From Nannocystaceae bacterium ST9 (lineage in GTDB: Bacteria; Myxococcota_A; Polyangia; Nannocystales; Nannocystaceae), in contig JBLWFJ010000001.1 of NCBI GenBank assembly GCA_048320885.1, positions 1,541,642 to 1,605,641 of the forward strand: a stretch of 64,000 bases of DNA. The letters run 5' to 3'. The translations under genes were made by a program, and so were the position numbers. The notes under the pieces were generated by a model. The model was not told the origin of the DNA and searched no databases. It saw nothing but the letters and a program-made list of their open reading frames with translations. This document shows, piece by piece, positions 1 to 26,003 of the stretch; position 1 is the stretch's first letter, and every line of letters begins with the position of its first letter.

Positions 1-1035
1 CATCGTGCCCTGCACGTCGCCGGCGCTCGACAGCTTCACCGAGCGCTCGACGCTGGCGAGGATCGTGTGCACGTGGGCGTTGGCGATCGGCAGCTTGCTC
101 GGCCCGCCGCCGTACATCGGGTGACCGAAGGCCAGCAGCTTCTCGCCGGCCTTGCCTCCGACCCAGGTGATCGTCCCGTTCGGCGCGGCCCCGTTGTCGC
201 CGGCGATCAGCACGACCGAGACCGAGTCGCCCGGCGTCCACTTGTGGCGCTGACTCGCCGCGGCCGCGACCCCCGACGACGCGCTCGCCCGATGCTTGCC
301 GCCACCGCGGACCGGCAGCAGCCCGGTCGACTCGGCCAGCAGCGCGGCGGCCTCGGCCCCGAGTCCGGCGATGGCCATCGGCGCCCCGATCGGCTCGAGC
401 CCGCCGCTCGGCGCTCCGCTCGGCCCCGGGATCTGCTCGGGCTTCATGCGTGGCGGCAGCGGATCGGTGTTGAGCCCGAGCATGCTGTCGGCCCACGCGA
501 AGCTGCCTTCGCGCCCGGCCGCCCGCGTCACGTGGCCGGGCTGGGCGAACACCTCGGGCCGGTAGGGCAGATCGGCGATCTCCAGCATGTTGGCGATCGG
601 CGTCATCCCGCCCAGCGGATCCTTGTTGAAGCGGTAGCCATAGGCGAGCGCGCCGGCCAGCTTGTCCTCGATGTAGATCGGGCTGCCCGACATGCCGCCG
701 ACGATCCCCGAGTGAACCAGGCGGGGATCCGGCGAGCTGAACAGCACCGCGTCTTGCCCGGTCACGTAGTCGCGGACGACGTCGACGACCTCGATCTCGA
801 ACTTGTCGGGCTTGTCGCCCTCGAACACGGTCAGCGCGTAGCCCCGCATGCCCGGCTTGATGTCGTCGACGGCGATCGTCTCGGGCGTGGCCTGGTGCTT
901 GGCGCCCGGTCGGGCCGCGACCGCGTCACCCATGAACCAAAACGCCGAGGCAAGCCCGACGCACAGGCCGAGCGACGCGCCCACGGTCATCCAGGTCCCG
1001 GAGCGACGAGAGTACGGATCAGGATTCGTTGCCAT
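1..1035 (-). CDS. SpoIVB-like S55 serine peptidase; N-terminus at 1035, C-terminus lies beyond the window start
   Basis: Manual minus-strand translation: ATG at 1035..1033 giving MATNPDPYSRRSGTWMTVGASLGLCVGLASAFWF (N-terminal TM or signal). Downstream is GIVGGMSGSPIYIEDK, which matches the SpoIVB GMSGSP catalytic-serine motif. GC3 codon bias is coherent. It is absent from the ORF track only because the stop is outside the window. Confidence 0.55.
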   Translation of the reverse strand, partial: MATNPDPYSRRSGTWMTVGASLGLCVGLASAFWFMGDAVAARPGAKHQATPETIAVDDIKPGMRGYALTVFEGDKPDKFEIEVVDVVRDYVTGQDAVLFSSPDPRLVHSGIVGGMSGSPIYIEDKLAGALAYGYRFNKDPLGGMTPIANMLEIADLPYRPEVFAQPGHVTRAAGREGSFAWADSMLGLNTDPLPPRMKPEQIPGPSGAPSGGLEPIGAPMAIAGLGAEAAALLAESTGLLPVRGGGKHRASASSGVAAAASQRHKWTPGDSVSVVLIAGDNGAAPNGTITWVGGKAGEKLLAFGHPMYGGGPSKLPIANAHVHTILASVERSVKLSSAGDVQGTM

Positions 1036-1570
1036 GCCGGTCGAGGGCCTCGCGCATGGTCGCGACGAGGTCTTCCTGCGGAGTATAGAAGTATCGAAAG
1101 CGCTTGCGATCCTTGTTGCGCAGCTCGGGATCGAGCTTGCCATTCGAATCGAGGAACATCACCCGCGGGATGTACTGACCGTCGGGCGCGTAGAGGGTCG
1201 CCTCGGGGGTCTGGTCTTGATCGACGTGGACCATCACGAAGCGCTCGGACAGCCGCTCGACCTGCGCGTCCTCGTTGAACACCTGCTTGAGCGCCCGACA
1301 CTTCGGGCACCACGCCGTGTGCACGACCATCATCACCGGCCGGTGATCTCGCTTGGCCTCGCGCAGGCCCTCTTCGAACCCGCGCCAGGCGATGTCGTCG
1401 TTCCAACCATCGGCCGGGACGCTCGCCTTGCGCTTGGGTCCGCTCGCCGCCCGATCGCGCTCGGACTCGCCGGACCCCGCGCTCGCTTCGCCCTCCGGCG
1501 GCGGGACGCAGGCCAGCACGCAAGCGGCGAAGACCAGGGCGAGCCGGGGCGAGTGGGCGGGGACGGCCAA
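1019..1570 (-). CDS. Thioredoxin-fold lipoprotein (WCPKC active site)
   Basis: The C-terminal 183 aa of ORF 1019..2257 contain HTAWCPKCRALKQVF and a lipobox-like ALVFAACVLAC. A TTG at 1570 is the probable start. The stop overlaps the S55 peptidase start by 17 nt. The upstream part of that ORF is R-rich garbage. Confidence 0.6.
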   Translation of the reverse strand: MAVPAHSPRLALVFAACVLACVPPPEGEASAGSGESERDRAASGPKRKASVPADGWNDDIAWRGFEEGLREAKRDHRPVMMVVHTAWCPKCRALKQVFNEDAQVERLSERFVMVHVDQDQTPEATLYAPDGQYIPRVMFLDSNGKLDPELRNKDRKRFRYFYTPQEDLVATMREALDRHGNES

Positions 1571-2354: not shown

Positions 2355-3767
2355 TTGGCCATGTCGTACAAATACATCGTCGAGCAGCAGTCCGCGAATC
2401 ACTACGTGCTCCCGCGGACCGGGTCGATGCATGTCGACGTCCACGCCTTCCTCTCGCCGAGCCTGCTCGAGCAGACTGACGAGGCGCTCTGGCAGCAGGC
2501 CGTCCACTCGGCCAGCTACGAGGGAGTGATCGGCGTCTACCTGATGCCCGACACCCACCTCGGCTACGGCATCCCGGTCGGCGGCGTGGTCGTCACCGAT
2601 GGCACCATCATTCAGTCCGGGTCCGGCTACGACATCTCGTGCGGGGTCGTGTACATGCAGACCCCGCTGCACGCCCGCGACGTCCAAGACTGGGACCGCC
2701 GGGCTCGCTGGGTCGACGAGGTCGAGCGCCGGGTCGCGACCGGGCTCGGCGACCATCGGCCCGACCTCGCCCCCCGCGTCAAATACAAGCAGATCGAGGC
2801 GATCCTGCGCTACGGCGCCAAGCCGCTCGGCGTGTCCGCGGATCTGTGCGAGCGCCAGTACATCCCGATCCCCGACGAGATCGAGCTCGACAAGATCCCC
2901 AAGGCCCACGAGCGCTGCGCCCACCAGCTCGGCTCGGTCGGCGGCGGCAATCACTTCATCGAGATGCAGGTCGACGCGGCCGACGGCTCGGTCTGGGTGA
3001 TGATCCACTGCGGCTCGCGCGGCTATGGCTGGCACACCGCCGATTACTTCTTTCACGAGGGCGCCAAGCTGCGTGGATTGCCTCGCAATCGCCGCGAACA
3101 ATCGCACCTGTTCATCGACGAGCCGCTCGGCCAGGAGTATTGGGCCTATCACAACAGCGCGGCCAATTTCGCGATCGCCAATCGGCATTGCATCGTCGAG
3201 GGCGTGCAGGCGGCCCTGCGCGAGATCTATGCGGTCGAGGGCGAGGTCTATTACGAGATCAGCCACAACCTCGTGCAGGAAGAGACCCTGGTCCTGCCCG
3301 ACGGCAGCCACAAGCGCGGGTTCGTGCACCGCAAAGGCGCGACCCGGGCGTTCCCGGCCGGCCACCCCGATCTGGTCGACACCTGCTGGGAGCAGACCGG
3401 GCACCCCTGCCTGATCCCGGGCTCGATGCTCAGCGGGGCCGCGATCCTGTTTCCGCTGGCCGGCGCGCTGAACTCGGGCTGCTCGGTCAACCACGGCTCG
3501 GGCCGCACGCTCGGGCGCGGTGAGGCCAAGCGCGAATTGCTGGCCCTGCACGACGACATCGATCGCGAGATGAAGACGATCGTCCGCAGCTTCGACGGCG
3601 TCGAGATCACCGGGATCGTCGGCAACACCGAGCGCACCCCGCTCGACGAATGTGGCCACGTCTACAAGGACCTCGACGAGGTGCTCGCGGTGCTCGAGCA
3701 CGAGGGCATCGCCCGAGTCGAGCGGCGGCTCTATCCGGTCGCCAACATCAAGGGCACCGATTCTTAG
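2355..3767 (+). CDS. rtcB: RNA-splicing ligase RtcB
   Basis: 470 aa carrying RtcB motifs LMPDTHLGYGIPVGGV, GGGNHFIE, HCGSRGYG and SVNHGSGR. TTG start at 2355 (ATG at 2361). Confidence 0.9.
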   Translation: MAMSYKYIVEQQSANHYVLPRTGSMHVDVHAFLSPSLLEQTDEALWQQAVHSASYEGVIGVYLMPDTHLGYGIPVGGVVVTDGTIIQSGSGYDISCGVVYMQTPLHARDVQDWDRRARWVDEVERRVATGLGDHRPDLAPRVKYKQIEAILRYGAKPLGVSADLCERQYIPIPDEIELDKIPKAHERCAHQLGSVGGGNHFIEMQVDAADGSVWVMIHCGSRGYGWHTADYFFHEGAKLRGLPRNRREQSHLFIDEPLGQEYWAYHNSAANFAIANRHCIVEGVQAALREIYAVEGEVYYEISHNLVQEETLVLPDGSHKRGFVHRKGATRAFPAGHPDLVDTCWEQTGHPCLIPGSMLSGAAILFPLAGALNSGCSVNHGSGRTLGRGEAKRELLALHDDIDREMKTIVRSFDGVEITGIVGNTERTPLDECGHVYKDLDEVLAVLEHEGIARVERRLYPVANIKGTDS

Positions 3768-3802: not shown

Positions 3803-4429
3803 ATGGGCGATCCTCCGAATCCCGCTCGCGTCAACGAGCAATGGAATCCCTACCGAATCGCGGTGATGCAGCGCGAGATCGCGGCGATCCGCGAATTCGG
3901 GGTCTTGAGCGGCGGTTGGGCTTGGCATTTCATGTCGCCGGCCCACGTCGAGTGCAAGCAATTGCACGATCACAAGGACATCGACATATTCGTCTATCCG
4001 CACGCCTTCGCGGCGCTGGTCGGATTGTTGGGTGATCGCGGATATTCGCGAGCCTGGACGCGCTTCGATGATCCGTCCAGCGAATTCATTCGCTTCGCGC
4101 GCTACGTCGAGCAGGCCTGCCCGGCCTGCCTCGAGGATGGTGTGCTGGCCGACGGCGACGAATTCGCCTGCGTCGCCTGTGGCTCGCGCTGGCCCGAGTC
4201 GCCCAGCCGCGTGGTCAAGGTGATCTTGGATCTCTTCGTCGAGGCCGTGCCCGAGCTGGTGCTCGCCGACGGCCACCGCGTGGTCGAGCCGGCCACCTTG
4301 CTGACCTTCTATGGCGACCGGCACAGCAGCGACCGCTGCGTCGCGGTCAAGGCCGCCCGCGAGCTGGTCGCCCGCGGCGAGCCGGTGGTCGGGCACGCCT
4401 CGCTGGTCGGGGTCTGGGGGCTCGACTGA
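3803..4429 (+). CDS. Hypothetical protein with a minimal nucleotidyltransferase-like motif and Cys pairs
   Basis: 208 aa. LSGGWAWHF...HDHKDIDIFV fits the pol-beta NTase pattern G[GS]x9-13 DhDh. Zn-ribbon-like CPAC...CVAC. It lies directly downstream of rtcB. Confidence 0.55.
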   Translation: MGDPPNPARVNEQWNPYRIAVMQREIAAIREFGVLSGGWAWHFMSPAHVECKQLHDHKDIDIFVYPHAFAALVGLLGDRGYSRAWTRFDDPSSEFIRFARYVEQACPACLEDGVLADGDEFACVACGSRWPESPSRVVKVILDLFVEAVPELVLADGHRVVEPATLLTFYGDRHSSDRCVAVKAARELVARGEPVVGHASLVGVWGLD

Positions 4430-4450: not shown

Positions 4451-5767
4451 TCAGTCCCGGCCGATCTCGATCGCCTCGGGCAAGATGCAGCGAACCGTGG
4501 TGCCCTTGTCGGGCTCGCTCTCGATCACGAACTCGCCCCGACACTCGCGCTCGATGATCTTGCGGGCGAGCGGCAGCCCGACGCCGGTGTGCTGATCGTC
4601 CTTCTTGGTCGAGACCATCGGCAGCAGCGCGCGGCGGATCTCTTCGCGATCCATGCCGTAGCCGGTGTCGATCACCGCGATCTCGACCCAGCCACGCCGG
4701 GCGTTGTGGCTGGTTCGCAGCACCACCCTGCCCTTACCCTCGACCGCCTCGATCGCGTTCTTGGCCAGGCTCGACAGCGCCTGGATCAATCGGACGCGCG
4801 GGACGTGCAGGTGGGTGCCGGGTCGAGTGCCGAGGTCGATCTCGAAGCGGACCGCCGCCGGCACGTCGAGCGCGTCGCGGACTAGGCCGACGACCTTGTG
4901 CAGCATCTCGGCCAGGTCGGCGTCCTCGAGCTCGGGCTTGGGATCGTCGACGAGCTTCTTGGTGTCGTCGAGCATCCGCTTGAGGAACTTGGTCCGATCG
5001 AGCGCGATCGACAAGTTGCGCTCCCAGTGCTTCTTGGCCGTCCGGCTGGTCTCGAGGTTGCCCTGCAGCTTGCCGAGCGCGTCGAGCAGGCCGGCGACGA
5101 CCGTGCGCATCTCGTGGGTGGTCTCGTTGGTCAGCAGCTTGTACTTGTGCTCGGCCAGGCGCTCGGCCGCGGCCGCGACCCGCTCGCCGTGCTCGCGACG
5201 CAGACCCTCGAGCTCGCCGTGGACCACGTCGATCTCGTCGGTCTTGCGCTGGTACTCGCGGTCGAGCTCGCGGCGACGATCGGCGGCTTGGCGGGCGGCC
5301 TTGCTGACGTAGTTGTTGTGGTCCTGCTCGAGCGTGCCGGCGATCTGCTCGAAGAGCGGGTGGGTCAGGTGGACCAGGCCGCGACAGATCGCCAGCCTCA
5401 CCTCCCACTTGCCGTCGCCGGTCATCGCCAGCAGGCGCTCGGCGATCGTTCGCACCACGCCCGGATCGGGCTTGGTCTGCAGCTCCTCGATCATCAGCTC
5501 GATCGCGGCCTGCCGATCGCGCCACGACTTGGCCTGCAGACCGACGAGGTAGCTCTGCTCGGCGACCGCCGCGACCTCGGCCGCGGCCGCCCGCGCGCCC
5601 GAGTCCTCGTGCGAGCGCTCGTCGGGCCCCTGCTCGGTCTCGGCCTCGCCCTCGGTCTCGTCGAGCTGCTTGACGTTCTCGTCGAGCGGCCGGGCCTTCT
5701 CGCGGACCGCCCCGCGTGCGCTCTTGGTTCGTCCGCTCGCGCGCCGCTTGGCCACGCGCTCGGTCAA
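4451..5767 (-). CDS. Cytoplasmic sensor histidine kinase
   Basis: 438 aa. H-box NETTHEMRTVVAG, HATPase_c N/G boxes (AKNAIEAV, VIDTGYGMD, GVGLPLARKII). No TM segment. Its stop overlaps the upstream ATPase by 4 nt. Confidence 0.8.
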   Translation of the reverse strand: MTERVAKRRASGRTKSARGAVREKARPLDENVKQLDETEGEAETEQGPDERSHEDSGARAAAAEVAAVAEQSYLVGLQAKSWRDRQAAIELMIEELQTKPDPGVVRTIAERLLAMTGDGKWEVRLAICRGLVHLTHPLFEQIAGTLEQDHNNYVSKAARQAADRRRELDREYQRKTDEIDVVHGELEGLRREHGERVAAAAERLAEHKYKLLTNETTHEMRTVVAGLLDALGKLQGNLETSRTAKKHWERNLSIALDRTKFLKRMLDDTKKLVDDPKPELEDADLAEMLHKVVGLVRDALDVPAAVRFEIDLGTRPGTHLHVPRVRLIQALSSLAKNAIEAVEGKGRVVLRTSHNARRGWVEIAVIDTGYGMDREEIRRALLPMVSTKKDDQHTGVGLPLARKIIERECRGEFVIESEPDKGTTVRCILPEAIEIGRD

Positions 5768-7653
5768 TGTCCGTACCTCCGCTTGCGCTCGAGGAACGCC
5801 TCGGCCCCGCCTTCGAGGATCTGTTCGATCTCGAATTTGACCTTCTCGACGTCGCCCGAGGTCCGCAGCCGGCCGCGCTGGCCGTCGGACTCGGTCACGA
5901 ACACTCGCTCGGCGTCGCCGAGCACCGGGATGTTCGGGTTGTGGGTCACGAAGATCAGCTGGCGGCGATGCTTGACCTCGGCGATGTTGCGCACGACGGT
6001 CTCATAGATGAACGCGTTGTCGAGGTTGTCCTCGGGCTGATCGATCAGCAGCGGACGATCGCTGTCGAGCAGCAAGATCGGCAGGATCGTCGTGCACTTC
6101 TGCCCGGTGCTCAGCGTCGACGCATCCTTGTAGATCCCGCCGTCGCACAGCTCGATCTTCGGGCGATCTTCGAGCTGCAGGGTCTCGAGGTCGAGCAGCA
6201 GCTTGCCGTCCTCGACCGACTTGAGCGCGTCGAGCAGCCACCCGGCCTGCTCGTCGCGGACGTCGAGCGTCGACGCGAGCTCCGAGGCCGCGTTGCGCTC
6301 GACCAGCCGGACCAGCTCGCGCGGCGGCAGCTGCTGCTCGATCTTGCCGACCAGCGTGTTGTACTGGCGGCCCTTGCCCTTGAGCGCGACCCGCAGGCGC
6401 TCGGCGTACTCGGCCCGATCGCCGAACTGGGTGATCGACACGCGAATGTCGGGTTGCAGCCGGGCCGTGATCTCGCGGGCGGTCTGCTGGCGCAGCGCGA
6501 ACATCTTGTCGTGCAGCTCCGAGAGCTTGTCGAGCAGGTCGCCGCGCTTCTTGCCCAGCTCTTGCAGCTCCTTGCGGCGCTGCTCGATCAAGCGGCGCTG
6601 CTCGAGCAGCTCGTTGAGCCGGCCTTGCAGGCGGGCGGCCTCGCGGGCCTGGGCCTGCGCGTCCTGGTGCTTGCGCAGCAGCTCGCCGTAGCGCTGCTCC
6701 TGGCCCGAGTGGGCCTCGCCGAGCTCGCGATCGAGGTCCTCGACCGAGGTCCGAACCTCGTCGATCAGCTTGCGCGCGCTGGCCAGCTGGCCGACCACGT
6801 CGTTGCCGGCCGCCTCGAGCACCATGTGCAGACGTTCGAAGAGCGGCTTGTTCTCGCCCTCGTTGCGCTCGACCAGACGATCGAAGCCACGCACGTTGCG
6901 GATCAGCACCTCGAGCTGCTCGTGCACGCCGGCCATGGTCTCGTCGACCCGCCGCATCATCCGCTTCTCTTGATCGCGCGCGCCCTTGAACGCGACCTCG
7001 CGGTTGATGTCCTCGGCCCGCTCGCCGCCGATGTCGAGCGCGTCGATCCGCTTCTTGATCTCGGGCAGCTCGGTCAGCGCCTCTTCGCGGTCGGAGATGG
7101 CCTGGCGCAGCCGGTGGATGTCGTTGCTGTTCTTCTCGAGGTCGGCGATCAGCGAGCGCCGCTTGGGCTCGATCTCGGCCAGCTCGTCGGCGACGAACTG
7201 ATCGATGATCGCCAGCTGGGCCTTGGGGCTGATCGCGATGTCCTCGATCTGGTGCTGGCTGTAGAAGTCGGCCGCGAACACCTGGCCGCGGTGCAGCGAG
7301 ACCTCGACCGGCGTGCCGCGCTCGTCCGAGACCTCGGGATCGCCCGAGGTCCCGCGCAGCACCCGGTAGGTCATCCCGTCGCGGGTCTCGATCGTCACCT
7401 CGGCCGTCCCCCGATCGAGGTTGGCCTTGATCAGCTTCGAGAGCTGCTGCTCGCGGGCCGGATCGACGCCCGGCATCTGCCCGAGACAGTAGCGAGTCAG
7501 CTCGAGGATCGTGGTCTTGCCGGTCCCGCGCGCGCCGATGATGCAGTTGAGCCCCGCGGCGAAGTCGAGCTCGAGCCCGTCCCAGAACCCACCGTGCACG
7601 GTCAGCTTGCGGATCTTGTGCGAGGCGCGGGGCTCGATCGGCTCGTCGGTCAT
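5764..7653 (-). CDS. SMC/RecF-like ABC-type ATPase with coiled-coil middle
   Basis: Real start is probably the internal ATG at 7653 (MTDEPIEP...); the 92 aa upstream of it in the ORF are low quality. Walker A GARGTGKTT, coiled-coil EEL/RRL-rich middle, signature-like LSTGQKC and Walker B/D-loop LLIDQPEDNLD. Confidence 0.75.
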   Translation of the reverse strand: MTDEPIEPRASHKIRKLTVHGGFWDGLELDFAAGLNCIIGARGTGKTTILELTRYCLGQMPGVDPAREQQLSKLIKANLDRGTAEVTIETRDGMTYRVLRGTSGDPEVSDERGTPVEVSLHRGQVFAADFYSQHQIEDIAISPKAQLAIIDQFVADELAEIEPKRRSLIADLEKNSNDIHRLRQAISDREEALTELPEIKKRIDALDIGGERAEDINREVAFKGARDQEKRMMRRVDETMAGVHEQLEVLIRNVRGFDRLVERNEGENKPLFERLHMVLEAAGNDVVGQLASARKLIDEVRTSVEDLDRELGEAHSGQEQRYGELLRKHQDAQAQAREAARLQGRLNELLEQRRLIEQRRKELQELGKKRGDLLDKLSELHDKMFALRQQTAREITARLQPDIRVSITQFGDRAEYAERLRVALKGKGRQYNTLVGKIEQQLPPRELVRLVERNAASELASTLDVRDEQAGWLLDALKSVEDGKLLLDLETLQLEDRPKIELCDGGIYKDASTLSTGQKCTTILPILLLDSDRPLLIDQPEDNLDNAFIYETVVRNIAEVKHRRQLIFVTHNPNIPVLGDAERVFVTESDGQRGRLRTSGDVEKVKFEIEQILEGGAEAFLERKRRYGH

Positions 7654-7869
7654 CGGGCACGAGGGTACGCCAGATGGGGCCGCGAGGGCGATCTCGGCCG
7701 CTGCGCGGCGCTGGCGGGGGATCTGCTCGGGTTTGGCGGCGCGGCCCGGGCTCGCCGCGGGATCGAGCCCTCCGGTCCGGGGATGGACGAGGCGGGCCGG
7801 GACGACACCGGCAAATCCATACATTCGATTTCCATCGCAATGAAACCGTCGGATATCGACAATGGATCC

Positions 7870-7912
7870 GAATCGTGTGGGGTTGACAATCGAATCGGAT
7901 TCTCTACCGTCG
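7870..7912 (+). promoter_or_regulatory. Candidate sigma70-type promoter for the CHAT-McrB gene in a locally AT-richer divergent intergenic region
   Basis: gggTTGACAatcgaatcggattctcTACCGTcgag: consensus -35 and a weak -10 at about 17 bp spacing, roughly 20 nt upstream of the ATG at 7928. Short direct repeats (gacaatggatccgaatcg / gacaatcgaatcggattc). Confidence 0.25.
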
Positions 7913-7927
7913 AGGCTGGTGGCGAAC

Positions 7928-10900
7928 ATGCTTTCCGAATCCGAACTCGTCGCGCTCGTTCAAAAGCTCGAGGCCGATCCTCCGCAATGGGTGTCGGATT
8001 GGCGTCGGCGAGTCGCAAAATTCTTGGCCGAAGTCGCCAGCGCCGATCTCGAGACCCGGAGCAGCCGAGAATTCCAGCTTCGGCTCTGGAACGACAATCC
8101 GATCACCAGCGCCGGTCAGGGCGAGGTGGCGGTAGCGGTCGCGCTCGACGACGTCGAATTCCGCGAGTGGCTGGCCCGCGCCTCGTTCGACCCGCTCCCG
8201 CTGGACGCGGTCGAGAAGCGCAACGCGCTCGAACGGATCCTCGCCCGGATGTGGGAGCAATTCGAGGGCCAACGCAAGCCCTGGCTGAAGATGTTTCGGC
8301 TGCTCGCGGCGCTCTATCCCGATCATTTCACTTGCCTGAGTTCGACCACTCGACTGCACGAGTACGCCAGACTGCTGCTCGCCGGCCCACCCGCGCGGCC
8401 CATCGAGCAGCACCTCGCGCTCTGCGGGCAATTCGAGCGGCTGCTCGGACCGGCCAACGCCACGGCGCAGACCCGGGCGCAGCGAATGACGCTGCACTGG
8501 ATGGTCTACGAGCGGGTTCGTCAGGCGAACGCAGAATCGCCGATAGCGATCGTCGAGGACACCAACGAAGAACGGTTGATTCCGCTTCCAGCCGACCGCC
8601 GCCGCCGGGGGCTCATCGCGTTCAAGGGCTTGTCGTCGGCGCTTCGGCAGATCTTGGCCAAGGTCGGTGCCGGCATGACCGGCGCCGAGCTGCGCGAGGT
8701 CGTCCGTGCCGCGATCCCAGACTACAATGACTCGAGCCTGACCATCGTCATTCGATCATTGCAAACCGACCTCGGGGTCCTGCAAGTCGACGACGAACGT
8801 TTCGTATTGACGCCCTCGGGCCAATCTCTGTTCGAGAGCGAGGACTCCGACGCGCTGGCCGAGTGGCTGTTGACCCGCGTGCTCGGTGTCGACGTGGCGA
8901 TCGCGGCGCTCCGTCCACGGCCGCTGAGCAAACCCGAATGGCTGCGGGCGATCCAACGCGCTAACCCTCGCTGGACCAGCTCGTTCGCACCCAACGGGAT
9001 CACCAGCTGGCTGCTCGATCTCGGGGTCGTCGAGTCGATCGATGGCCAGTGCCAGCTGACGGAGCGCGGTCGGTCCTGGGCCGAGCTGATCCACTGGGTT
9101 CCGGTGACCCTCGACGTGGACGCACCGAACGAGACGCCCGAGTCCGAGCCGGAGCCCGAGGCCTTCTTCGACGAATCCGAGACCTTCGAACTGCACGTCG
9201 ACCTGCGCGCGGATGGCCGTGCGTGTCTGGTCCGGCTGCACGGAACCGAGAGCTGGTCGCAGGCGCCGTCGTTGCTGCCCTCGATCGCCGACGACAGCGA
9301 ATTCGTCGGTAAATCTCTGTTCGGCATTCTGTTCCACGAACAAAGCCTGCTCGGTCGCTATCGAGAGCTCCGCGCCGTCGCCCACGACCGGCACATGCCG
9401 CTGCGCGTGGTCTTGCACATGCACGCCGACGTTGTGAACCCCGATCGGCATTCGATCGCCGATCATTGCTGGGAGACACTACTCGATCCACAACATGGAC
9501 GCATCGCCAGCGATCTCGCGCTGCGCTTGGTGCGGGTCCGTGCGGGCCTTCATGCACTCGAAGTACCCCGAGCCCGGCCACGACTGCATGCATTGGTCGG
9601 ATTTGCTTGCCCTCGAGAATGTCAGGTCCTGGATTTCCACCACGAGCGCATCTCCTTCAAGAAGCTGACGCGCAGCTTGCAGGCCAGCACGTTGGTCGAT
9701 TTCAACTTTCATGAGCCGCTCGACATCGAGTCGCTACGGACGCACATCCGAGCCTCGGACTCCTTTCATTTCGGGGGCCACGGCGAAGTCGGTGGCCTGG
9801 TCCTCGAGGACTCCGGCAGTCACGCACAGGTGCTCGATAGCGAAGTGCTCCGAGCCATGCTGACACCACCGCTCCCCTGCTTTGTGGTTCTCAACGCGTG
9901 CCATGGCTCGGTCGCCGAAGATGCGCTCAGTGCAGCCCATGCGTTTCTCGAGCGTGGTGTGCATGCCGTCGTCGCCATGAACGGCGAGTTCGCGGACCGA
10001 GCTGCGGCTTCGTTCGTCGACGAACTCTACACGCGGCTGGTCGCGGGAAGCGATGTCGAGGCCGCCGTTCAGAGCGCGCGCTGGCGTCTGCTGTCTGAAC
10101 GAAGTGACTCATGGTTCATGCCGGTCCTGTGGACCCGAACCACCGCGAGCTTCGCGTTGGTCGATCGCAACCTCGCCGACGCCAACCCGGTCGTCCGCGA
10201 GCGCGTCGAGCAGCTCGATCGCTACGTCCGCGAGCATCGCCCACGCGTGGCGATCCGCGATCGCATCGACGCGAGCGGGATCGCGGCGGATCTCGACGCG
10301 AGTCGGCGAAGCGAGCTGGCCGAGTCGTTGCTGGAGCGCGTCGCGGTCGACGATCCCGATCGCTTCGAGGTCGAGCTCGACAAGCTGCTCGGCGACGCAT
10401 CGGTCACCCATCAGGTCGCGCAGCTGCGTCGCCGTGCGAGCAGCCCGTCCGGTGAGCTGCACGAGCTCGCCGAGGCGCTGCGCCGAGACGTGGTCCCTCC
10501 GCTCGGCGCGGCCGCGAGCTCGCTGCCCGCCTTGATCGCCGCGCTCGAGGCGATGACCCGCCCCGCCCCGACTCCCCCTGTCGAGCCCGCGCCGCCGCGC
10601 GAGTACGTCGACGTCGAGCGCCCGCTGACCCTCGAAGGCAGCCTCGACGCGATGATCCCGATCGCCAAGGCCGAGCTCGAGCTCGACGACGAGATCGTCC
10701 GCCGCTGCCTGATCCACCTGCTCGCCGGTCGCCACCTGGTGCTCGCCGGCCCGCCGGGCACCGGCAAGTCGACGCTCGCTCAGGGTCTCGCCAGGGCGTT
10801 CGGCTTCGCGGCGAAGATGACGACCGCGAACCCCGACTGGACCACCTACGACACGATCGGCGGGCTCGCGCCGATCCGCGTGCGCGACGAAGCCGGCCGC

Positions 10901-11797
10901 GGCCAAGTCGGCTACGAGTTTCAGCCCGGCCACGTGCTGCGGGCGATCGAGGCCAACTGGGTCGCCCGCGAGGGGGCCTGGCGGCGCGAGAAGGTGTGGT
11001 TGGTGATCGACGAGATGAACCGCGCGCCGCTCGATCAGGCGTTCGGCGCCCTGTTCACGGCGCTGGTCGAGCGAAGGCTCGAAGATCCGCGAATCGACGC
11101 CGCGATCCCCCTGCCCGCGGACTTTCGCCTGATCTGCACGGCCAACACCTCGGATCGTCGGCTGCTCTTCGAATTCTCCGAGGCGCTCAAGCGGCGCTTC
11201 GCCTTCGTCGAGATCCCGGCATTTCGTGGATCTCGCGGGCTCGGCGGGGGCGAGCGATTGTTGAGCCAGCTGCGCAAACGCGGGGTATGGGGCGACCACG
11301 ACATCGAGAACGATTTTAGCGAAACGCTCGCCAAACTCGATCCCATCGTCGATCGCCTGCGGATCCTGCATCCGCTCGGGCTCGCGCACGTGCTCGACGT
11401 CCTCATGTATGTCCTCGTCGCCCGCGCCCACGGTCGCGCCTTTAGCCGCCAATTGCTGACCGAGGCGTTGGTCGACAATCTGCTGCCGGTGCTCGAATCG
11501 CAACCCTCGGCGCGGCTCGACGCGCTCGCCAGCCTGCTCGCGGGTGGCATTCGCGGGTGGCTCGATCGCTGCGTTACCGAAATGCGAGCATATCGAGCCG
11601 ACCCCGTGGCCCTGCGCGTCGCGATCGAACTGGTGCGTGGTTCGAGCGAGTTCGACGAGCCGAAGGGCGAACTCGAGGCGTGGCTCGCCGCGCGAGTCGA
11701 GTCGCGCGGTCCGGAGCTCGACGAATGGCAGGCGCTCCCGTACGCCGCAGAGTTCACGCTCGCGCTGCAGCGCCTGGCCGCGGAGCGCAGTGCTTGA
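7928..11797 (+). CDS. Multidomain protein: N-terminal helical region + 2 winged-helix-like units + CHAT (caspase-like) protease domain + McrB-type AAA+ GTPase
   Basis: ORF 7862..11797. ATG at 7928 (MLSESELV) is preferred because a TTGACA promoter-like hexamer lies inside the 7862-7927 stretch. CHAT His/Cys dyad motifs FHFGGHGEV (about 9767) and VVLNACHGS (about 9890). McrB-like Walker A LVLAGPPGTGKST (about 10750), Walker B WLVIDEMNRAPLDQAFGALF (about 11000) and McrB-type FRLICTANTSDR. Confidence 0.8.
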   Translation: MLSESELVALVQKLEADPPQWVSDWRRRVAKFLAEVASADLETRSSREFQLRLWNDNPITSAGQGEVAVAVALDDVEFREWLARASFDPLPLDAVEKRNALERILARMWEQFEGQRKPWLKMFRLLAALYPDHFTCLSSTTRLHEYARLLLAGPPARPIEQHLALCGQFERLLGPANATAQTRAQRMTLHWMVYERVRQANAESPIAIVEDTNEERLIPLPADRRRRGLIAFKGLSSALRQILAKVGAGMTGAELREVVRAAIPDYNDSSLTIVIRSLQTDLGVLQVDDERFVLTPSGQSLFESEDSDALAEWLLTRVLGVDVAIAALRPRPLSKPEWLRAIQRANPRWTSSFAPNGITSWLLDLGVVESIDGQCQLTERGRSWAELIHWVPVTLDVDAPNETPESEPEPEAFFDESETFELHVDLRADGRACLVRLHGTESWSQAPSLLPSIADDSEFVGKSLFGILFHEQSLLGRYRELRAVAHDRHMPLRVVLHMHADVVNPDRHSIADHCWETLLDPQHGRIASDLALRLVRVRAGLHALEVPRARPRLHALVGFACPRECQVLDFHHERISFKKLTRSLQASTLVDFNFHEPLDIESLRTHIRASDSFHFGGHGEVGGLVLEDSGSHAQVLDSEVLRAMLTPPLPCFVVLNACHGSVAEDALSAAHAFLERGVHAVVAMNGEFADRAAASFVDELYTRLVAGSDVEAAVQSARWRLLSERSDSWFMPVLWTRTTASFALVDRNLADANPVVRERVEQLDRYVREHRPRVAIRDRIDASGIAADLDASRRSELAESLLERVAVDDPDRFEVELDKLLGDASVTHQVAQLRRRASSPSGELHELAEALRRDVVPPLGAAASSLPALIAALEAMTRPAPTPPVEPAPPREYVDVERPLTLEGSLDAMIPIAKAELELDDEIVRRCLIHLLAGRHLVLAGPPGTGKSTLAQGLARAFGFAAKMTTANPDWTTYDTIGGLAPIRVRDEAGRGQVGYEFQPGHVLRAIEANWVAREGAWRREKVWLVIDEMNRAPLDQAFGALFTALVERRLEDPRIDAAIPLPADFRLICTANTSDRRLLFEFSEALKRRFAFVEIPAFRGSRGLGGGERLLSQLRKRGVWGDHDIENDFSETLAKLDPIVDRLRILHPLGLAHVLDVLMYVLVARAHGRAFSRQLLTEALVDNLLPVLESQPSARLDALASLLAGGIRGWLDRCVTEMRAYRADPVALRVAIELVRGSSEFDEPKGELEAWLAARVESRGPELDEWQALPYAAEFTLALQRLAAERSA

Positions 11798-12953
11798 TCC
11801 GGCCGAGCGCGAGCTGCTCTTCGCCCGCATCGTCGTCCGGCTGACCGCGCTGCGGGCCGCGGGGGTGATGCGCGAGCCCTGCGACTTCTCGCGCGACGCC
11901 CCACCGGAGCACTCCGAGAGCGCAACCTTGCTGTGGAACTGGGCGCGGCTGCTCGGCGACGCCCAAGAGCTGATCCACGACGTGTTCGAGCCAGCCATGC
12001 GCGAGCCCGGCCGCGAGCATCTCCGACGAACGACGGAGCACCCCCATCGCCCACGCGGCGCCACGAACTGGCCGCAGACCAGCAAGCGCTCGCTTCGACG
12101 CGGACAGGCCGAGCCGCCGCGCTTCGTGTGCACCACGGCCTCGCGCAGCATCACGGCGCCCGAGAACATGCTCTTGGTCCAGACGCTCGACGAGGTGCTC
12201 GCGCGCGGGGCCCATGCGCTCGCCTGGCTCGAAGCTCGCCGCCTGCTCGGGCTCGAAGAGCGCGCGCTGATCCGCCACCATCGTCGCAGCGCCGCACGGA
12301 CGCTGGCGACCGCCTGGGTGGCGAGCTGTCGCGCGGCGCTGCACGAGCATCGGCGAACGCACGCGCTGGCCGAGATCGAGCGCGAGGTCGAAGGTCGCGT
12401 GCGCGGTCGGCCGAGCGCGGCGCCCGAGTGGGCCCGCCGCTTGCTCGAGCTGCGGCGAACCACGCCGAAGATCCCTCGCGACATGCGACTCGCGACGATC
12501 GACGACGATCGGCTCTGGCAAGACCTCGCGTGGCTGGAGGTGCTCGCGCTGCTGCATGGTCACGCGCGCCTCCACCAACACGACGACGGATTTCGTAGCC
12601 GGGAGGGCGATCTCGAATTTCGACCCTTGCCCGACACGCCCGCCTGGATCCTCGCGCACCGCGGCGCGCCTGCGATCGCCCTATTTCAATCATGCGCATC
12701 GACCTGGCAAGACGTGCGTCGCGATTCGCTCTATTGGAGTTGGACGGCGACCCATTGCGACGTCGACATCGATCGTTGGCTGATCCTCCATCGGGCGAGC
12801 GACGGCCCCTTCGTTCATGCCCGTCATCGCAGGGGCATCGAACTCGAGTATTGCCGCGTCGAGCCCGAGCGAGGCCTCGCCCCCGAAATCTCTGCGACGT
12901 TGGTTCGTTGGCTGGCTCCCTCGGCAGATTCTGCCGATCAGGGCGCCCGGTGA
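11790..12953 (+). CDS. Hypothetical protein translationally coupled to the CHAT-McrB gene; possible McrC-like partner
   Basis: The GTG at 11790 overlaps the upstream TGA (GTGCTTGA). About 387 aa, Arg/His-rich but the most protein-like frame here. No clear PD-(D/E)xK motif was recognised by eye. Confidence 0.45.
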   Translation: MLDPAERELLFARIVVRLTALRAAGVMREPCDFSRDAPPEHSESATLLWNWARLLGDAQELIHDVFEPAMREPGREHLRRTTEHPHRPRGATNWPQTSKRSLRRGQAEPPRFVCTTASRSITAPENMLLVQTLDEVLARGAHALAWLEARRLLGLEERALIRHHRRSAARTLATAWVASCRAALHEHRRTHALAEIEREVEGRVRGRPSAAPEWARRLLELRRTTPKIPRDMRLATIDDDRLWQDLAWLEVLALLHGHARLHQHDDGFRSREGDLEFRPLPDTPAWILAHRGAPAIALFQSCASTWQDVRRDSLYWSWTATHCDVDIDRWLILHRASDGPFVHARHRRGIELEYCRVEPERGLAPEISATLVRWLAPSADSADQGAR

Positions 12954-12971
12954 CGCCGCTATATTCGTTCC

Positions 12972-13622
12972 GTGAACTTCCATCCCTCGATGATCCTCAC
13001 CGTCTCGATGGCCCTCTTCGCGTGCACGCCCGATGGCGGGGGCGGTGACGAGGTCGGCAACACCGAGACTGCGGGCACCGACTCCACGTCCGGCGACTCC
13101 ACCTCCACCGACAGCACGTCCGGCGATTCGACCAGCGAGGGCACGTCCACCGACAGCAGCTCGGGCGACTCCACCGACTCCACCGACTCGACCTCGAGCG
13201 ATTCCACCGACTCCACCTCCGAGACCGGCGATCCCGATCCGATCGTGTCGACCTTCAGCTGCGAAGAGACCTCGGTGGTCGAGCCCTTCTTGCAGCTGAC
13301 CATCACCGGCGGCTTCACGGCCCAGAGCGAGCCTCGCAACCTGGTCGCCACCCACACGCTCGGCGGTGCGATCGAGTTCTCGGTGCCCATCCCGGCGCTC
13401 GTCGACCCGAACGACGCCAACTATGCCGACGTGGTCTACTGGGAGATGCAGCTCTCGATGGTCGGCTACGACGTGAACCTGCCCGACGACGGGACCGACG
13501 ACTCGCGCTACTTGTTCTTGCCGAGCGGGGCCGAGGGCGTGTCGACCTTCGACGCGTTCTATTATCGCGTCTACGGCGTGGGCGGCACCGGCCAGTTCGA
13601 CTTCACGTGCACGGCCGACTGA
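12972..13622 (+). CDS. Secreted lipoprotein with a Ser/Thr/Asp-rich linker
   Basis: Signal plus lipobox MALFAC, (STDS)n low-complexity linker, folded C-terminal domain. Confidence 0.7.
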   Translation: MNFHPSMILTVSMALFACTPDGGGGDEVGNTETAGTDSTSGDSTSTDSTSGDSTSEGTSTDSSSGDSTDSTDSTSSDSTDSTSETGDPDPIVSTFSCEETSVVEPFLQLTITGGFTAQSEPRNLVATHTLGGAIEFSVPIPALVDPNDANYADVVYWEMQLSMVGYDVNLPDDGTDDSRYLFLPSGAEGVSTFDAFYYRVYGVGGTGQFDFTCTAD

Positions 13623-18764: not shown

Positions 18765-20618
18765 TCAGCTCATGCCCGTGAGCAGGCCGTCGGCGGTCCA
18801 GCGTCGCAGCCATCGCGCGACCGCGGCGGGCGTCGCCGCGTGGCCGGCCAGGCCCTCGGGATCGCTGGCCCCACAGGCCGCCATGCACAGCCCGAGGAAG
18901 TCGGCCCCGTCCTGCAAGGCCAGCAGCGTGCGGGCTTCGTTGGCCGGCAGGTCGCGGTGGAACACGGTCAGGCCCGAGCGCCAGATCAACACGTGGCTGG
19001 GCTCGACCGAACCAGGCCCGGATGGGCCGTGGGCCGGGTGCATGCGGCGGGCCTCGTCGATCGATCGACCCTCGCGACACAGCGACCACATCGGCGAGAA
19101 GGGCCGCGAGCAGGCGCGCACGCGCATCGCCGCGCTCGCGCGCAGGCGCAGCTCGGGCCAGCGATCGAGCGGCACGGCCTCGAACGCCGAGAGCGAGAGC
19201 ATCGGCGCGTCGGGCAGGTCGAGCAGCTCGACGCGATCGAGCTCGATCCGGGCGACCTCGATCAGCTCGGGATCGTCGATGCCCTCGGGGTGATCGGCGA
19301 GGTAGTCGGGGAAGGGCCGCGAGTAGTGGCGCAGGTCGGCGTCGTGCGAGGGGTTGTGCAGCACGTAGTCGGTCAGCAGGTTGTGGAAGCGGACATGGCC
19401 GAGCATCCACGCGACGGTCGGGAAGTGCTCCTCGAGCACGCCGGCCAGCCGCCAGTAGTAGTCGTTGGCGTAGATGTCCATGCGATCGAGGGCCGAGAAG
19501 CCCTCGCTGCAATCGAACGCCTCTTCGAAGGTCTGGCGCAGCTCGGGCGTCGCGGTGGCCAGGAAGTCGGCGACGCCGGTCGGGAAGCGGATCGCCTGCC
19601 AGAACAGATCCAAGTCGGTCGCCAACGCGTATGCGCCGGTTCGGCGAGTGGCGGCGCTCGCCGAGGCCAGCGCGTCGAGGTCGACCCGCGGCCGCTCGGG
19701 TGTCGGGGCCGGGCTGCGCGGGCGAGCGCCGAGCACCTCGTCGGCGATCGCGGCGGCCTTGCGCTGCTCGTCGCGCAGCTCCTCCCAGGCCGGGACGTCC
19801 TCGTCCCACTCGATCAGCGACGAGACCGGACCCCAGCGACGCAGCGCGTTGCGATAGAGCTCCCAGACCTCGTCGGGCACCGGGCCGAGGTGCGAGTCGA
19901 ATTTGTAGAGCCCGCGATCGGTGTGGTTGGCGAGGTGGAATTGCCAGACGCGCTCGCCCGGGATCGCGTCGAGGTAGTCGTCGGGATCCCAGCCATGGTT
20001 GCGCGCGCTGACGATCACGTTGTTGAGATCGAGCAGCAGCAGGCAGTCGGCCCGCTCGGCCAGCTGGGCCAGAAACTCCCACTCGCTCAGCTCGCTCGAT
20101 CGAAAGCCGACGTAGCTCGACACGTTCTCGATCAGGATCCGTCGACCGAGGATGTCCTGCACGCGAGCGACCCGCTCGATCACCGAGTCGAGCGCCTCTT
20201 CGGTGTAGGGCAGCGGCAGCAGGGCGTGGCTGTGCTCGCCTCGCCGAGTCGCCCAGCACAGGTGATCGGACACCCAGGCCGGCTCGATCCGATCGATCAG
20301 CGCCTGCAGGCGATCGAGGTAGCGACGATCGGGGGCGTCGAGCGAGCCGACCCCGAGCCCGACCCCGTGCAGCACGACCGGGAGGTCGCGGCGGATCGCG
20401 TCGAGCGTGGCGAGCGGGCGGCCGCCCTCGCCGAAGAAGTTCTCGCTGATCGCCTCGACCCAGTCGACGTCGAGGCCCTGCACGAGCGCGCGGGCGAAGT
20501 GGCGCGTACGCAGGCCGACCCCGTGACCGAGGAAGGGTCGCGCCCCCACGGCCGAGCCCGCAGGGCGCCCACGGCCGAAGGAAGCACCGCCGCGGTCGAG
20601 CTCGCGGTCTTCGGGCAT
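18765..20618 (-). CDS. Fused MNIO (DUF692, MbnB/BufB-like) - DUF2063 (BufC/HvfC-like) RiPP maturase
   Basis: N-terminal TIM-barrel DUF692 motifs ([31 protein letters not shown]). C-terminal half resembles DUF2063. Probable start MPEDRELD at 20618 (ORF to 20702). Confidence 0.75.
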
Positions 20619-20707
20619 CGGCCGGACGATACGCGATTCTCGAGGGCGACTGCACCGTCCCGCGTAACCTCGCGCTCGGGTCCGGCAATCTGCCCCGGAC
20701 AACCGCC

Positions 20708-22905: not shown

Positions 22906-22917
22906 GCAGATGCGAAT

Positions 22918-25160: not shown

Positions 25161-26003
25161 ACTTGTGTTGTTGGGCGGCCACGACAGTGGGAAAACCCAC
25201 TACGCGGCACAGCTCTACGGACGATTGCGTCGCCGCCCAGGCGAGCTTCGTCTGCGGGAGTTGGCGGCACGCCTGCGGATCTCAGTGCCCTTGAGGAAGT
25301 CCTCATGTGTTTGGGAAGGGGTCGTGCGGCAGGGCATACCGCGACCAGTACATGGGCGGAGTTGAAACTGCCACTGGTCGACCGAATCGGGCGCGAACTC
25401 GACGTGACCTGGCCAGACTACGGTGGTGAACAGGTCCGGCAAATGTCACGGCTTCGCATGATTCCGCGCGAGTGGGTGGAGCGACTGACGCGGGCGGATG
25501 GCTGGGCTGTGCTAATCCGCCTGCAGAGCGAGAAACAATACTCGGACTCGCTCGAACACCTGACGGAGCGGCCCCATGCAAACGAACATTCGGATGAAGG
25601 GTCCGCCGACACCTTCGAATGGGACGCCAACGCGAAATGGGTTGAACTTCTGCAGATGCTACTGCACGTAGCGGGGCACGGGACCGTGCGGAGGCTGCTT
25701 CGCCCACGTTTGATCGTGTTGCTGTCGTGCTACGACGAAGTCGCTGTCGCCACCGACGAGACCCCCGCGGCAGTGCTGGAGCGCTGGCTCCCCTTATTGT
25801 CCGCCTTCATCAACTCGAACTGGTCTGCTGGCGCGGCAACTGTGTGGGGTATTTCCCCACTTGGAAAACCGCTTACGCCGGATTCCCGCGACACGGACTT
25901 CATCGATGACGGCCCCGAACTTCAGGGGTGGATCGTTCAACCCGACGGGAGTAAGTGCGACGATCTGAGTCTCCCGCTCGCGTGGTTGCTGGAGGCGACG
26001 TGA
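25147..26003 (+). pseudogene. Second, paralogous P-loop GTPase interrupted by a frameshift (ORFs 25147..25365 and 25305..26003)
   Basis: Walker A LLGGHDSGKTHY is in the first ORF; DxxG (TWPDYGGEQ) and the rest of the paralog are in a second frame overlapping 25305-25365. The alignment is parallel to GTPase 1 (DAPGEWFMRW vs DYGGEQVRQM). Confidence 0.55.

Follow-up and report, generated by a model that had tools for sequence, protein, structure and literature searches.

A CHAT protease fused to an McrB-type GTPase, with a predicted nuclease-deficient McrC-like partner, in Nannocystaceae bacterium ST9: a candidate McrBC-derived conflict module

McrBC is the textbook GTP-driven restriction machine, and the locus described here raises the question of what such machinery does when its GTPase carries a protease. 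The locus lies in a window (the whole stretch of DNA analyzed here) of 64 kb from Nannocystaceae bacterium ST9, a myxobacterium with a genome of ∼68% G+C (GC). It consists of two overlapping genes. Gene 1 encodes a fusion of an N-terminal reader module, a CHAT caspase-like protease, and an McrB-type AAA+ GTPase, whereas the product of gene 2, judging from its sequence and modeled structure, is a divergent McrC in which the N-terminal domain and the nuclease fold persist but the catalytic residues are gone. The reading favored here, with a probability of about 0.55, is that these genes form a McrBC-derived conflict module in which a protease has taken over the effector role from a nuclease, and which would be triggered by a sensor, gated by GTP, and active in defense or abortive infection. 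Because the McrC nuclease residues have been lost and the GTPase has gained a protease, an invader would probably be answered by cutting proteins and not DNA.

Much of this layout had been proposed in a first-pass annotation, which described a protein of roughly 1290 amino acids (aa) with a helical N terminus, two winged-helix-like units, a CHAT domain with an intact His/Cys dyad, and an McrB-type AAA+ domain, followed by a gene whose GTG start overlaps the stop codon as in the McrB-McrC arrangement. Each of these elements was recovered (Table 1), and all the peptide strings quoted in that annotation are present in the open reading frame (ORF), whose product has 1289 aa if counted from the annotated ATG at position 7928. 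The longest ORF of gene 1 spans positions 7862 to 11797 of the plus strand, with 1311 open codons, and the residues of gene 1 are numbered from position 7862 throughout. The ATG at 7928 is nevertheless the likelier start, because the segment from 7800 to 7927, with its higher AT content, resembles a divergent intergenic stretch and because residues 1 to 21 come out disordered in the AlphaFold2 (AF2) model. The GTG of gene 2 at 11790 runs 8 nucleotides (nt) into gene 1, whose TGA occupies positions 11795 to 11797 (gtgcttga), and the sequence GGAG is found 9 to 6 nt upstream of this GTG. Long spurious ORFs are common at 68% GC, and one of them, an antisense ORF of 791 aa, overlaps the locus; gene calls were therefore based on codon-position GC, domain matches, homologs, and synteny, and not on length. 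By these measures, gene 2, which the same annotation had considered as a possible noncoding artifact, is a real gene: it is annotated by NCBI, its reading frame is supported by codon-position GC, and it has syntenic full-length homologs with 31 to 53% identity. A promoter scan revealed no promoter-like site, and a terminator scan revealed a single terminator-like site, located within gene 1, with more such sites found in shuffled sequences.

The CHAT domain of gene 1 was recognized by the Pfam model with an E value of 2.8e-16 (60.2 bits versus the gathering cutoff of 24), and every relative tested passes this cutoff as well. An alignment of 13 family members showed that His636, the catalytic His640 followed by Gly641, Asn678, and the catalytic Cys680 are all invariant, so the dyad is conserved in 13 of 13 sequences. 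The profile built from these 13 sequences, when compared with all PDB sequences, identified the SAVED-CHAT protein 8tl0 as the closest solved CHAT relative (E value, 4.5e-13). The conserved linker that connects CHAT with the AAA+ domain appears to be mostly helical.

The C-terminal part of gene 1 was matched by the Pfam AAA_5 model (residues 958 to 1113; E value, 7e-19). Its best matches in PDB were McrB proteins: the same 13-sequence profile retrieved McrB of T. gammatolerans at 9.4e-16 and McrB of E. coli at 6.9e-15, whereas other AAA+ proteins scored 1e-5 or worse and were matched over the P-loop only. In all McrB homologs, sensor 1 is replaced by an MNxxDR(S) signature (PMC7680126, PMC11090510), and the ST9 protein has the corresponding NxxD signature. 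Among the 13 members, the GPPGTGK (residues 963 to 969) and DExNR (1050 to 1054) motifs, Asn1095, Thr1096, Asp1098, and a KRRF motif are invariant. The invariance of the CHAT dyad and the NTPase motifs in this set indicates that selection acts on both the protease and the NTPase active sites. The NCBIfam equivalog model for McrB gave gene 1 only 16 bits versus the cutoff of 637, so this is an McrB-family domain and not an ortholog of E. coli McrB. A search of gene 1 for a STAND domain gave, as the only Pfam match, nSTAND3, limited to the P-loop (16.4 bits versus the cutoff of 27.2), and that for MoxR gave bpMoxR, limited to the N-terminal 47 residues (19.9 bits versus the cutoff of 27).

Gene 2 had no direct match in domain databases. 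None of the 11 members of the partner family matched any Pfam model at E values up to 1, DUF2357 and vWA included; PADLOC and NCBIfam returned no match for gene 2; the 11-sequence partner profile matched no PDB sequence at E values up to 10; and hhalign detected no link between a 7-sequence partner alignment and two DUF2357+PDDEXK_7 proteins. The connection to McrC is transitive: it runs through the McrC-like partners of a sister clade, the nearest AAA+ relatives that have no CHAT domain, and is joined by the fold. HHalign linked the partner family to these sister-clade partners with a probability of 96.8% in local mode (residues 7 to 141) and 98% in global mode, pairing RPRGAxxWPxT...APENLLL with vrGxIxWxxT...tPENxvL; the GxxxWxxT...PEN motif is found in 11 of 11 members. 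The profile of the sister-clade partners, in turn, scores 28 bits with E. coli McrC, over the nuclease region. The partner N-terminal motif itself aligns only weakly, at 0.9 bits, with GIKGRIEFAKT...DTLAN of E. coli McrC. In the AF2 model of the partner, with an overall predicted local distance difference test score (pLDDT) of 73.8 and a predicted template modeling score (pTM) of 0.72, the C-terminal domain is predicted to adopt a PD-(D/E)xK-type fold, similar to restriction endonucleases (REases) and McrC, with pLDDT values of 87 to 94. The ten homologs of gene 2 are each encoded directly 3' of a CHAT-AAA_5 gene, and the same order, fusion gene first and partner directly 3' of it, was seen at every locus examined. 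The two genes overlap by 8 nt in seven ST9-like loci (among them the window, L001, L002, L005, L089, and L091) and by 14 to 17 nt in the four distant loci, L092 to L095, whereas the partner starts 2 nt past the fusion stop in Plesiocystis pacifica and 29 nt past it in L090.

Although the nuclease fold appears to have been kept, no Asp, Glu, or Lys residue past position 230 is invariant among the 11 partner sequences. The PD...(D/E)xK motif was found in 0 of 11 ST9-like partners, in 0 of 4 partners of the distant CHAT group (which have, for example, RPWTAAL...VVVEARN), and in neither of the two partners from loci L080 and L100, which are ∼280 aa long and consist of the N-terminal domain only. 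By contrast, 84 of 104 partners of non-CHAT relatives have this motif. The difference between 0/17 for CHAT-fused proteins and 84/104 for the rest (Fisher's exact p = 8e-10, computed for 0/15) indicates that protease gain and nuclease loss go together. It also refines the initial suggestion that this motor carries a protease instead of, or in addition to, a DNA reader: the DNA-type reader is retained alongside the protease, and what the protease replaces is the nuclease.

The sister clade itself, parsed at 53 loci from GTDB species genomes, retains the (M/L)NxxD(K/R) signature in all but one case (the NxxD signature is seen in 51 of 52 parsed proteins), and nearly all of its loci have an adjacent gene coding for a protein of 400 to 450 aa, with the PD...(D/E)xK motif present in 41 of 48 such partners. 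This clade (L010 to L088 and L097 to L175) comprises more than 400 loci in GTDB species genomes of Chloroflexota, Bacillota, Actinomycetota, and haloarchaea, and its members have varied N termini. The sister-clade partners had no Pfam match (10 tested) and no specific PADLOC model (5 tested), which leaves McrC-like proteins from hundreds of loci outside the Pfam and PADLOC models, an annotation gap of its own.

Could the ST9 pair still be a DNA restriction system, with the partner acting through a noncanonical site that includes the invariant Arg329, Trp330, His334, and Arg335, or with a nuclease supplied in trans, while CHAT only regulates the complex or processes it? The REase fold is kept with high model confidence, the invariant His and Arg residues map to the strand corresponding to the (D/E)xK strand in the alignment, and the N terminus of gene 1 resembles a DNA reader. 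However, there is no conserved acidic residue in the domain and thus nothing to bind the metal, the L080 and L100 partners have no nuclease domain at all, the N termini of most family members are not DNA binding, and the protease dyad is invariant, which together make this alternative highly improbable. It is hardly credible, in turn, that the fusion works as a processive protease, with the AAA+ ring unfolding substrates into CHAT and gene 2 serving as an adaptor. The presence of AAA+ and protease domains in a single polypeptide does recall Lon and FtsH, a likeness of domain order only. The AAA+ domain, however, is of the McrB family and not of the classical unfoldase clade, and the characterized CHAT and caspase proteases, e.g., SAVED-CHAT (for context, PMC11417357), are site-specific endopeptidases that are switched on by assembly. 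Furthermore, the McrBC pore is filled by the McrC finger (PMC7680126), and the partner appears to keep the respective domain.

What this protease might respond to is suggested by the N-terminal module of gene 1, which was modeled by AF2 with a mean pLDDT of 76.6 and resembles, in its predicted structure, winged-helix DNA binders and FokI-type recognition domains. Residues 44 to 417 match the N termini of six NxD-type McrB proteins of ∼754 aa (P0002 to P0007) with 32 to 40% identity and E values from 1e-50 to 1e-73; a faint match to the Pfam WHD_halo_double domain is on record for one of them, P0004. These six proteins had also come up as possible AAA+ relatives and were rejected as such: the match, with 29% query coverage, falls on the N-terminal reader, and their C-terminal GTPase, with the signature VNMDETT, belongs to the other, NxD, lineage. 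In the two loci of this type that were read, the downstream gene has a PDDEXK_7 match, accompanied in one of them by a weak DUF2357 match; one locus adjoins Mrr and DNA methylase genes, and the other adjoins a CBASS operon. Because the same module is common to NxD-type McrB proteins encoded beside DUF2357+PDDEXK_7, Mrr, methylase, or CBASS genes, a DNA-reading role is likely, and the most plausible view of the ST9 N-terminal module is that of a DNA-reading head that can be moved among McrB-type systems. In both of these loci (L007, 8001-11820, and L008, 8001-11830), a gene for a NOV_C-domain protein is found upstream. According to the CoCoNuT paper (PMC11090510), the methyltransferase-associated NxD branch, in which the P0002 to P0007 family falls, has been deferred for later description.

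The domain census for CHAT and AAA_5 suggested in the first-pass annotation shows that the ST9 protein is no one-off. It relies on representative clustering and on ORF calls made on the relatives' loci. A HMMER search with residues 440 to 1311 retrieved 11,212 proteins at E values up to 1e-3, and 13 representative clusters proved to be colinear with ST9 over CHAT, the linker, and AAA+. A family-specific CHAT profile detected the CHAT region in 55 proteins, nearly all of them within the best 150 hits, so that the CHAT-McrB architecture is a family of at least ∼55 clusters with interchangeable sensors. Its core (CHAT, linker, AAA+, and partner) is constant, and the N-terminal module is exchanged; the modules seen in relatives include WD40, Ser/Thr kinase, REC, IF2_N, LRR, two S1 domains, TIR (in P0094), ResIII/DEAD helicase (in P0057), FHA (in P0029), and DUF8426. 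Some relatives with lengths of 1500 to 2100 aa (P0071, P0073, P0076, P0078, and P0108) have a pair of CHAT regions preceding the McrB-like GTPase. When 185,579 species genomes were searched, P. pacifica SIR-1 was the only source of the full ST9-like fusion within the top 80 hits, and a more distant CHAT-bearing relative came from an Anaerolineae metagenome-assembled genome. Scanning GTDB species genomes with patterns derived from the partner yielded nothing, and a metagenome scan, which depended on exact patterns, added little. Where a source of the ST9-like subfamily is named, it belongs to Myxococcota (Nannocystaceae, Enhygromyxa, and Myxococcales); the loci have 62 to 71% GC, and a search of plasmids and phages found no copies of the family.

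Most relatives of the ST9 module encode additional putative effectors next to the pair. All four distant operons (L092 to L095) have three genes, those for the fusion, the partner, and a protein of 459 to 483 aa with faint Metallophos matches. Homologs of this metallophosphoesterase-like protein flank two ST9-like loci (L089, 7274-8446, and L091, 774-2192), and it is a candidate for a protease-activated effector. Krishnan et al. 2020 is reportedly the source for protease-associated metallophosphoesterases. Three other ST9-like loci have, instead, a gene combining a weak, sub-threshold SIR2_2 match with a strong FGE-sulfatase domain, and at one of these three SIR2-FGE loci (the L001 homolog) a Pepco gene lies directly upstream. 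An accessory gene is thus present at 4 of 4 distant operons and at five ST9-like loci with readable flanks (L001, L002, L005, L089, and L091). Pepco is a pore-forming toxin, experimentally shown to be activated through cleavage by a neighboring protease, and metallophosphoesterase-like proteins have been listed among the protease-associated modules (PMC12642450). The TIR, LRR, WD40, and helicase sensors of the relatives, together with Pepco and the metallophosphoesterase-like third gene, give the family its immune flavor, and a role in defense or abortive infection can be inferred for the ST9 module as well.

A possible sequence of events can be outlined by analogy with McrBC, in which a hexameric GTPase ring holds the McrC finger in its pore (PMC7680126). 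The GTPase domains of the ST9 fusion would assemble into a hexamer with bound GTP, with the dead McrC as its plug and stimulator; if the homology extends that far, the McrC-type N-terminal domain would promote hydrolysis by means of a basic residue that acts on the NxxD loop (PMC7680126). Binding of a ligand by the N-terminal module, in ST9 most likely DNA of a particular kind, may then change the state of the ring or cause the complexes to associate, so that the six CHAT domains carried by the ring become arranged for activity. If a locus encodes a dedicated pro-toxin, this would be the target of the protease; in ST9, the targets would be cellular or invader proteins, and their cleavage would lead to growth arrest or death of the infected cell. 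Partner-stimulated GTP hydrolysis could serve as a timer or a reset.

The surroundings of the ST9 pair (Table 1) are of a mixed character. Divergently from gene 1, the window encodes a TrlF/Ppl-like ATPase, which scored 4e-98 (330 bits versus the cutoff of 350) with the NCBIfam TrlF model, 1.5e-41 with the anti-phage Ppl model, and 5e-30 with the Ppl model of PADLOC, but covers only the C-terminal two thirds of the TrlF and Ppl models; with the adjacent HATPase_c protein, it may constitute a second defense-like pair beside the CHAT-McrB module. Farther away on that side is the gene for RtcB, an RNA ligase often tied to RNA-damage responses, and downstream of the module are genes for a LysM/M74 peptidase and an acetyl-CoA hydrolase. 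A scan of neighbors of the pair detected no nuclease domain. The 216-aa ORF that follows gene 2 encodes a lipoprotein-type signal, MILTVSMALFAC (lipobox LFAC), a long low-complexity linker rich in Ser, Thr, and Asp, and a C-terminal domain of ∼120 aa. No Pfam model matched this ORF, which is the sole member of its 90% cluster. It probably lies outside the system, although cotranscription is possible. A minus-strand ORF at 12959 to 13420 was rejected as a gene in favor of this NCBI-annotated plus-strand ORF. At positions 22000 to 28000, GC falls from ∼0.69 to 0.60-0.62, and with the GT4-conflict+EAD1 gene at its edge, this region looks like a separate, horizontally acquired conflict-system island; the 64-kb window contains no tRNA genes and hence none that would mark the edge of an island. 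The fusion of MbnB/TglH/ChrH with DUF2063 points to a nearby locus for the biosynthesis of ribosomally synthesized and posttranslationally modified peptides (RiPPs). The GC content at third codon positions (GC3) of gene 1 is 0.81, versus 0.91 to 0.94 for its neighbors, which hints at horizontal acquisition.

Table 1. Features of the ST9 window (nucleotide positions in the window; residues of gene 1 numbered from position 7862)
Feature	Residues	Position	Strand	Remarks
Gene 1, reader-CHAT-McrB fusion	1289 aa from annotated ATG	7928..11797	+	MFV8750190.1, "AAA family ATPase" (NCBI)
All-helical N-terminal domain	25-224	7934..8533	+	AF2 pLDDT mostly 80-96
Disordered basic linker with PLPADRRRRG	239-250	after helical domain	+	AF2
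Winged helix 1	258-316	8633..8809	+	AF2
Winged helix 2	330-409	8849..9088	+	AF2, modeled at 330-399
CHAT caspase-like protease region	450-766	9209..10159	+	Pfam CHAT at 586-766
Catalytic His640	640	9779-9781	+	CHAT dyad
Catalytic Cys680	680	9899-9901	+	CHAT dyad
Conserved linker, CHAT to AAA+	767-935	10160..10666	+	Aligns full length with relatives, 47-48% identity
McrB-type AAA+ GTPase module and C-terminal lid	936-1311	10667..11794	+	AAA_5; McrB best PDB relatives
Walker A, GPPGTGKS	963-970		+	Motif
Walker B, DEMNR	1050-1054		+	Motif
Signature ANTSDR (N1095...D1098)	ANTSDRR at 1094-1100	11141-11158	+	McrB NxxD
Gene 2, predicted McrC homolog with degenerate nuclease domain	387 aa	11790..12953	+	MFV8750191.1 (NCBI)
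Partner N-terminal domain	1-230	11790..12479	+	Predicted to engage McrB
Partner invariant motif EPGR	72-75		+	N-terminal domain
Partner invariant motif RPRGAxxWPxT	87-97	12048-12080	+	N-terminal domain
Partner invariant motif RSxxAPENLLL	119-129		+	N-terminal domain
Partner invariant motif PxAAPxWARxLLE	208-220		+	N-terminal domain
Partner C-terminal domain	239-375	12504..12914	+	Predicted REase-like fold, catalytic residues absent
Lipoprotein-like ORF	216 aa	12972-13622	+	MFV8750192.1, NCBI hypothetical; 19 nt past partner stop
RtcB RNA ligase		2355-3767	+	E value, 1.9e-85; followed by a 208-aa ORF at 3803-4429
HATPase_c protein	438 aa	4451-5767	-	Start overlapped 4 nt by stop of TrlF/Ppl-like ATPase
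TrlF/Ppl-like ABC/SMC-like ATPase		within 4451-7929	-	Divergent from gene 1; likely start ATG at 7654
MbnB/TglH/ChrH fused to DUF2063		18765-20702	-	RiPP precursor-modifying; E value, 3e-99
GT4-conflict glycosyltransferase with C-terminal EAD1	558 aa	21229-22905	+	E value, 1.9e-71

Several observations weigh against the assignment of the pair to conflict systems. The use of GTP rather than ATP and the formation of a ring are assumed from the homology with McrBC. The AF2 models of both the gene 1 N terminus and gene 2 were built on 7-sequence alignments, and the support for the CHAT-McrB family as a whole consists of sequence and structure comparison, synteny, and correlation. The REC, kinase, and WD40 sensors fit ordinary signal transduction just as well. 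The nearest neighbors of the pair are, except for the Ppl/TrlF-like ATPase, mostly of the housekeeping type (RtcB, LysM peptidase, and acetyl-CoA hydrolase), and the locus is no obvious defense island. Finally, no gene for Pepco, the metallophosphoesterase-like protein, or SIR2-FGE was detected by tblastn in the 64-kb ST9 window, and none was found near the P. pacifica copy.

The absence of an accessory gene from the window, set against its presence in all four distant operons and in the five ST9-like loci with readable flanks, would be expected if the ST9 copy were orphaned or decaying, i.e., if the ancestral system needed a third effector gene and the remaining pair were functionless or only partly functional. 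Such a remnant is quite improbable, given that both ST9 ORFs are intact and all catalytic and family-invariant residues are kept, that P. pacifica SIR-1 has independently a two-gene version with a different sensor, and that the 7-Mb genome may hold an effector gene at another place.

The sensors and the phyletic distribution bear on another explanation, namely that the pair is a device for regulated proteolysis in the physiology of the host itself, such as developmental cell death, stress response, or kin interactions in social myxobacteria. In this case, a signal from the cell would be received by the N-terminal module, and cellular regulators would be the substrates of the protease. The REC receiver and the Ser/Thr kinase among the N termini of the family, the histidine kinase and response regulator encoded just upstream of the pair in L090, the confinement of the named ST9-like sources to Myxococcota, and the lack of plasmid or phage copies, noted above, all favor it, as does the setting of the ST9 locus. 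Other members, however, have TIR, LRR, or helicase modules, as well as Pepco, SIR2-FGE, and metallophosphoesterase-like neighbors, all of which are typical of conflict systems; the ST9 reader is common to McrB proteins encoded beside CBASS, Mrr, and methylase genes; the fast exchange of sensors on a constant core is a pattern of immune receptors; and the lower GC3 of gene 1 suggests horizontal acquisition. A role in the physiology of the host is therefore unlikely.

If the pair is indeed a conflict module, its parts can be combined in a further reading, which is tentative and falls somewhat short of even odds. The McrB ring would serve as an NLR-like platform for a caspase-like protease and not as a DNA translocase, the dead McrC would be no more than a GTPase-activating plug, and the swappable heads would set the trigger. 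These heads would be the tandem winged helix, S1, LRR, WD40, TIR, helicase, REC, or kinase modules, and the trigger in ST9 would be a DNA feature read by the FokI-like tandem winged-helix module. Should this be true, the family would represent a hitherto unrecognized class of GTP-gated immune proteases and a documented case of a restriction system turning into a protein-cleaving abortive-infection system. Cell death set off by proteases, known from Craspase, SAVED-CHAT, Avs-Pepco, and gasdermins, is increasingly seen as a central principle of bacterial immunity, and the CHAT-McrB family unites it with the GTP-driven machinery of McrBC. It offers a case of an McrBC lineage that has lost its nuclease site in step with the gain of a caspase-like protease (0/17 versus 84/104), and, with at least ten sensor modules on a single core, a scaffold for studying how sensing is coupled to proteolysis and, possibly, for engineering ligand-triggered proteases.

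Similarly to the first-pass annotation, which did not recognize the locus as a described system, the current analysis found no system-level match for it in PADLOC, Pfam, or NCBIfam. PADLOC v2 returned only generic AAA matches for gene 1, the best of them REase_II (5.9e-8, over the AAA core), and none for gene 2. The open-access literature searched contained nothing relevant on the combination of CHAT or caspase domains with McrB or McrBC. The fusion is not mentioned in the main text of the McrBC census (PMC11090510), in the work on NTP-dependent conflict systems (PMC7159879), or in the 2025 work on protease-effector and nuclease-protease modules. The CHAT-McrB arrangement is thus absent from the literature and the defense catalogues that were searchable here.

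Each of its parts, however, has known counterparts. The P0002 to P0007 proteins have the same helical and tandem winged-helix module over ∼380 aa, but they contain no CHAT domain, their GTPase is of the NxD lineage, and their partners have DUF2357/PDDEXK_7 matches. The combination of a modular sensor, an NTPase, and a protease is shared with Avs/STAND proteases associated with Pepco, the ternary systems of caspase, MoxR, and vWA, and SAVED-CHAT, as are the exchangeable sensors of the WD40, LRR, and TPR type (PMC12642450, PMC7159879). As with Avs/STAND and Pepco, protease-activated effectors are adjacent in CHAT-McrB relatives, and SAVED-CHAT of type III CRISPR systems is, by sequence profile, the closest solved relative of the ST9 CHAT domain. 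In contrast to STAND, MoxR-vWA (Kaur et al. 2020), and SAVED-CHAT, the predicted NTPase of ST9 is an McrB-type ring GTPase with an McrC-type partner, and there is neither a vWA nor a SAVED domain.

McrBC derivatives in which the McrC nuclease is inactivated and other effectors stand in for it are on record (Bell et al. 2024, PMC11090510). Like CoCoNuT systems as presented there, the ST9 module has an McrB-like GTPase and an McrC homolog in which the PD-(D/E)xK nuclease is dead or lost, with another effector taking over, and the role predicted for both is abortive infection. CoCoNuTs, however, belong to the NxD branch and have long coiled coils and HEPN or other nucleases that are predicted to target RNA (PMC11090510), whereas ST9 has the NTSD (NxxD) signature, the effector that takes the place of the nuclease is a CHAT protease in one polypeptide with the GTPase, and its scanned neighbors include no HEPN or other nuclease.

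The closest comparison is with McrBC itself. The ST9 module shares with it an AAA+ domain in which sensor 1 is replaced by the NxxD(R) signature and whose best solved relative is McrB, a variable N-terminal reader, an overlapping downstream partner gene (mcrB and mcrC of E. coli overlap by 1 nt), and a partner predicted to combine an McrC-type N-terminal domain with a C-terminal domain of the REase fold. It differs in that the partner has no PD-(D/E)xK catalytic residues, that the reader is separated from the GTPase by an insertion of ∼490 aa comprising CHAT and the linker, that neither gene reaches the threshold of an McrB, McrC, or DUF2357 family, and that its predicted output is proteolysis and not DNA cleavage.

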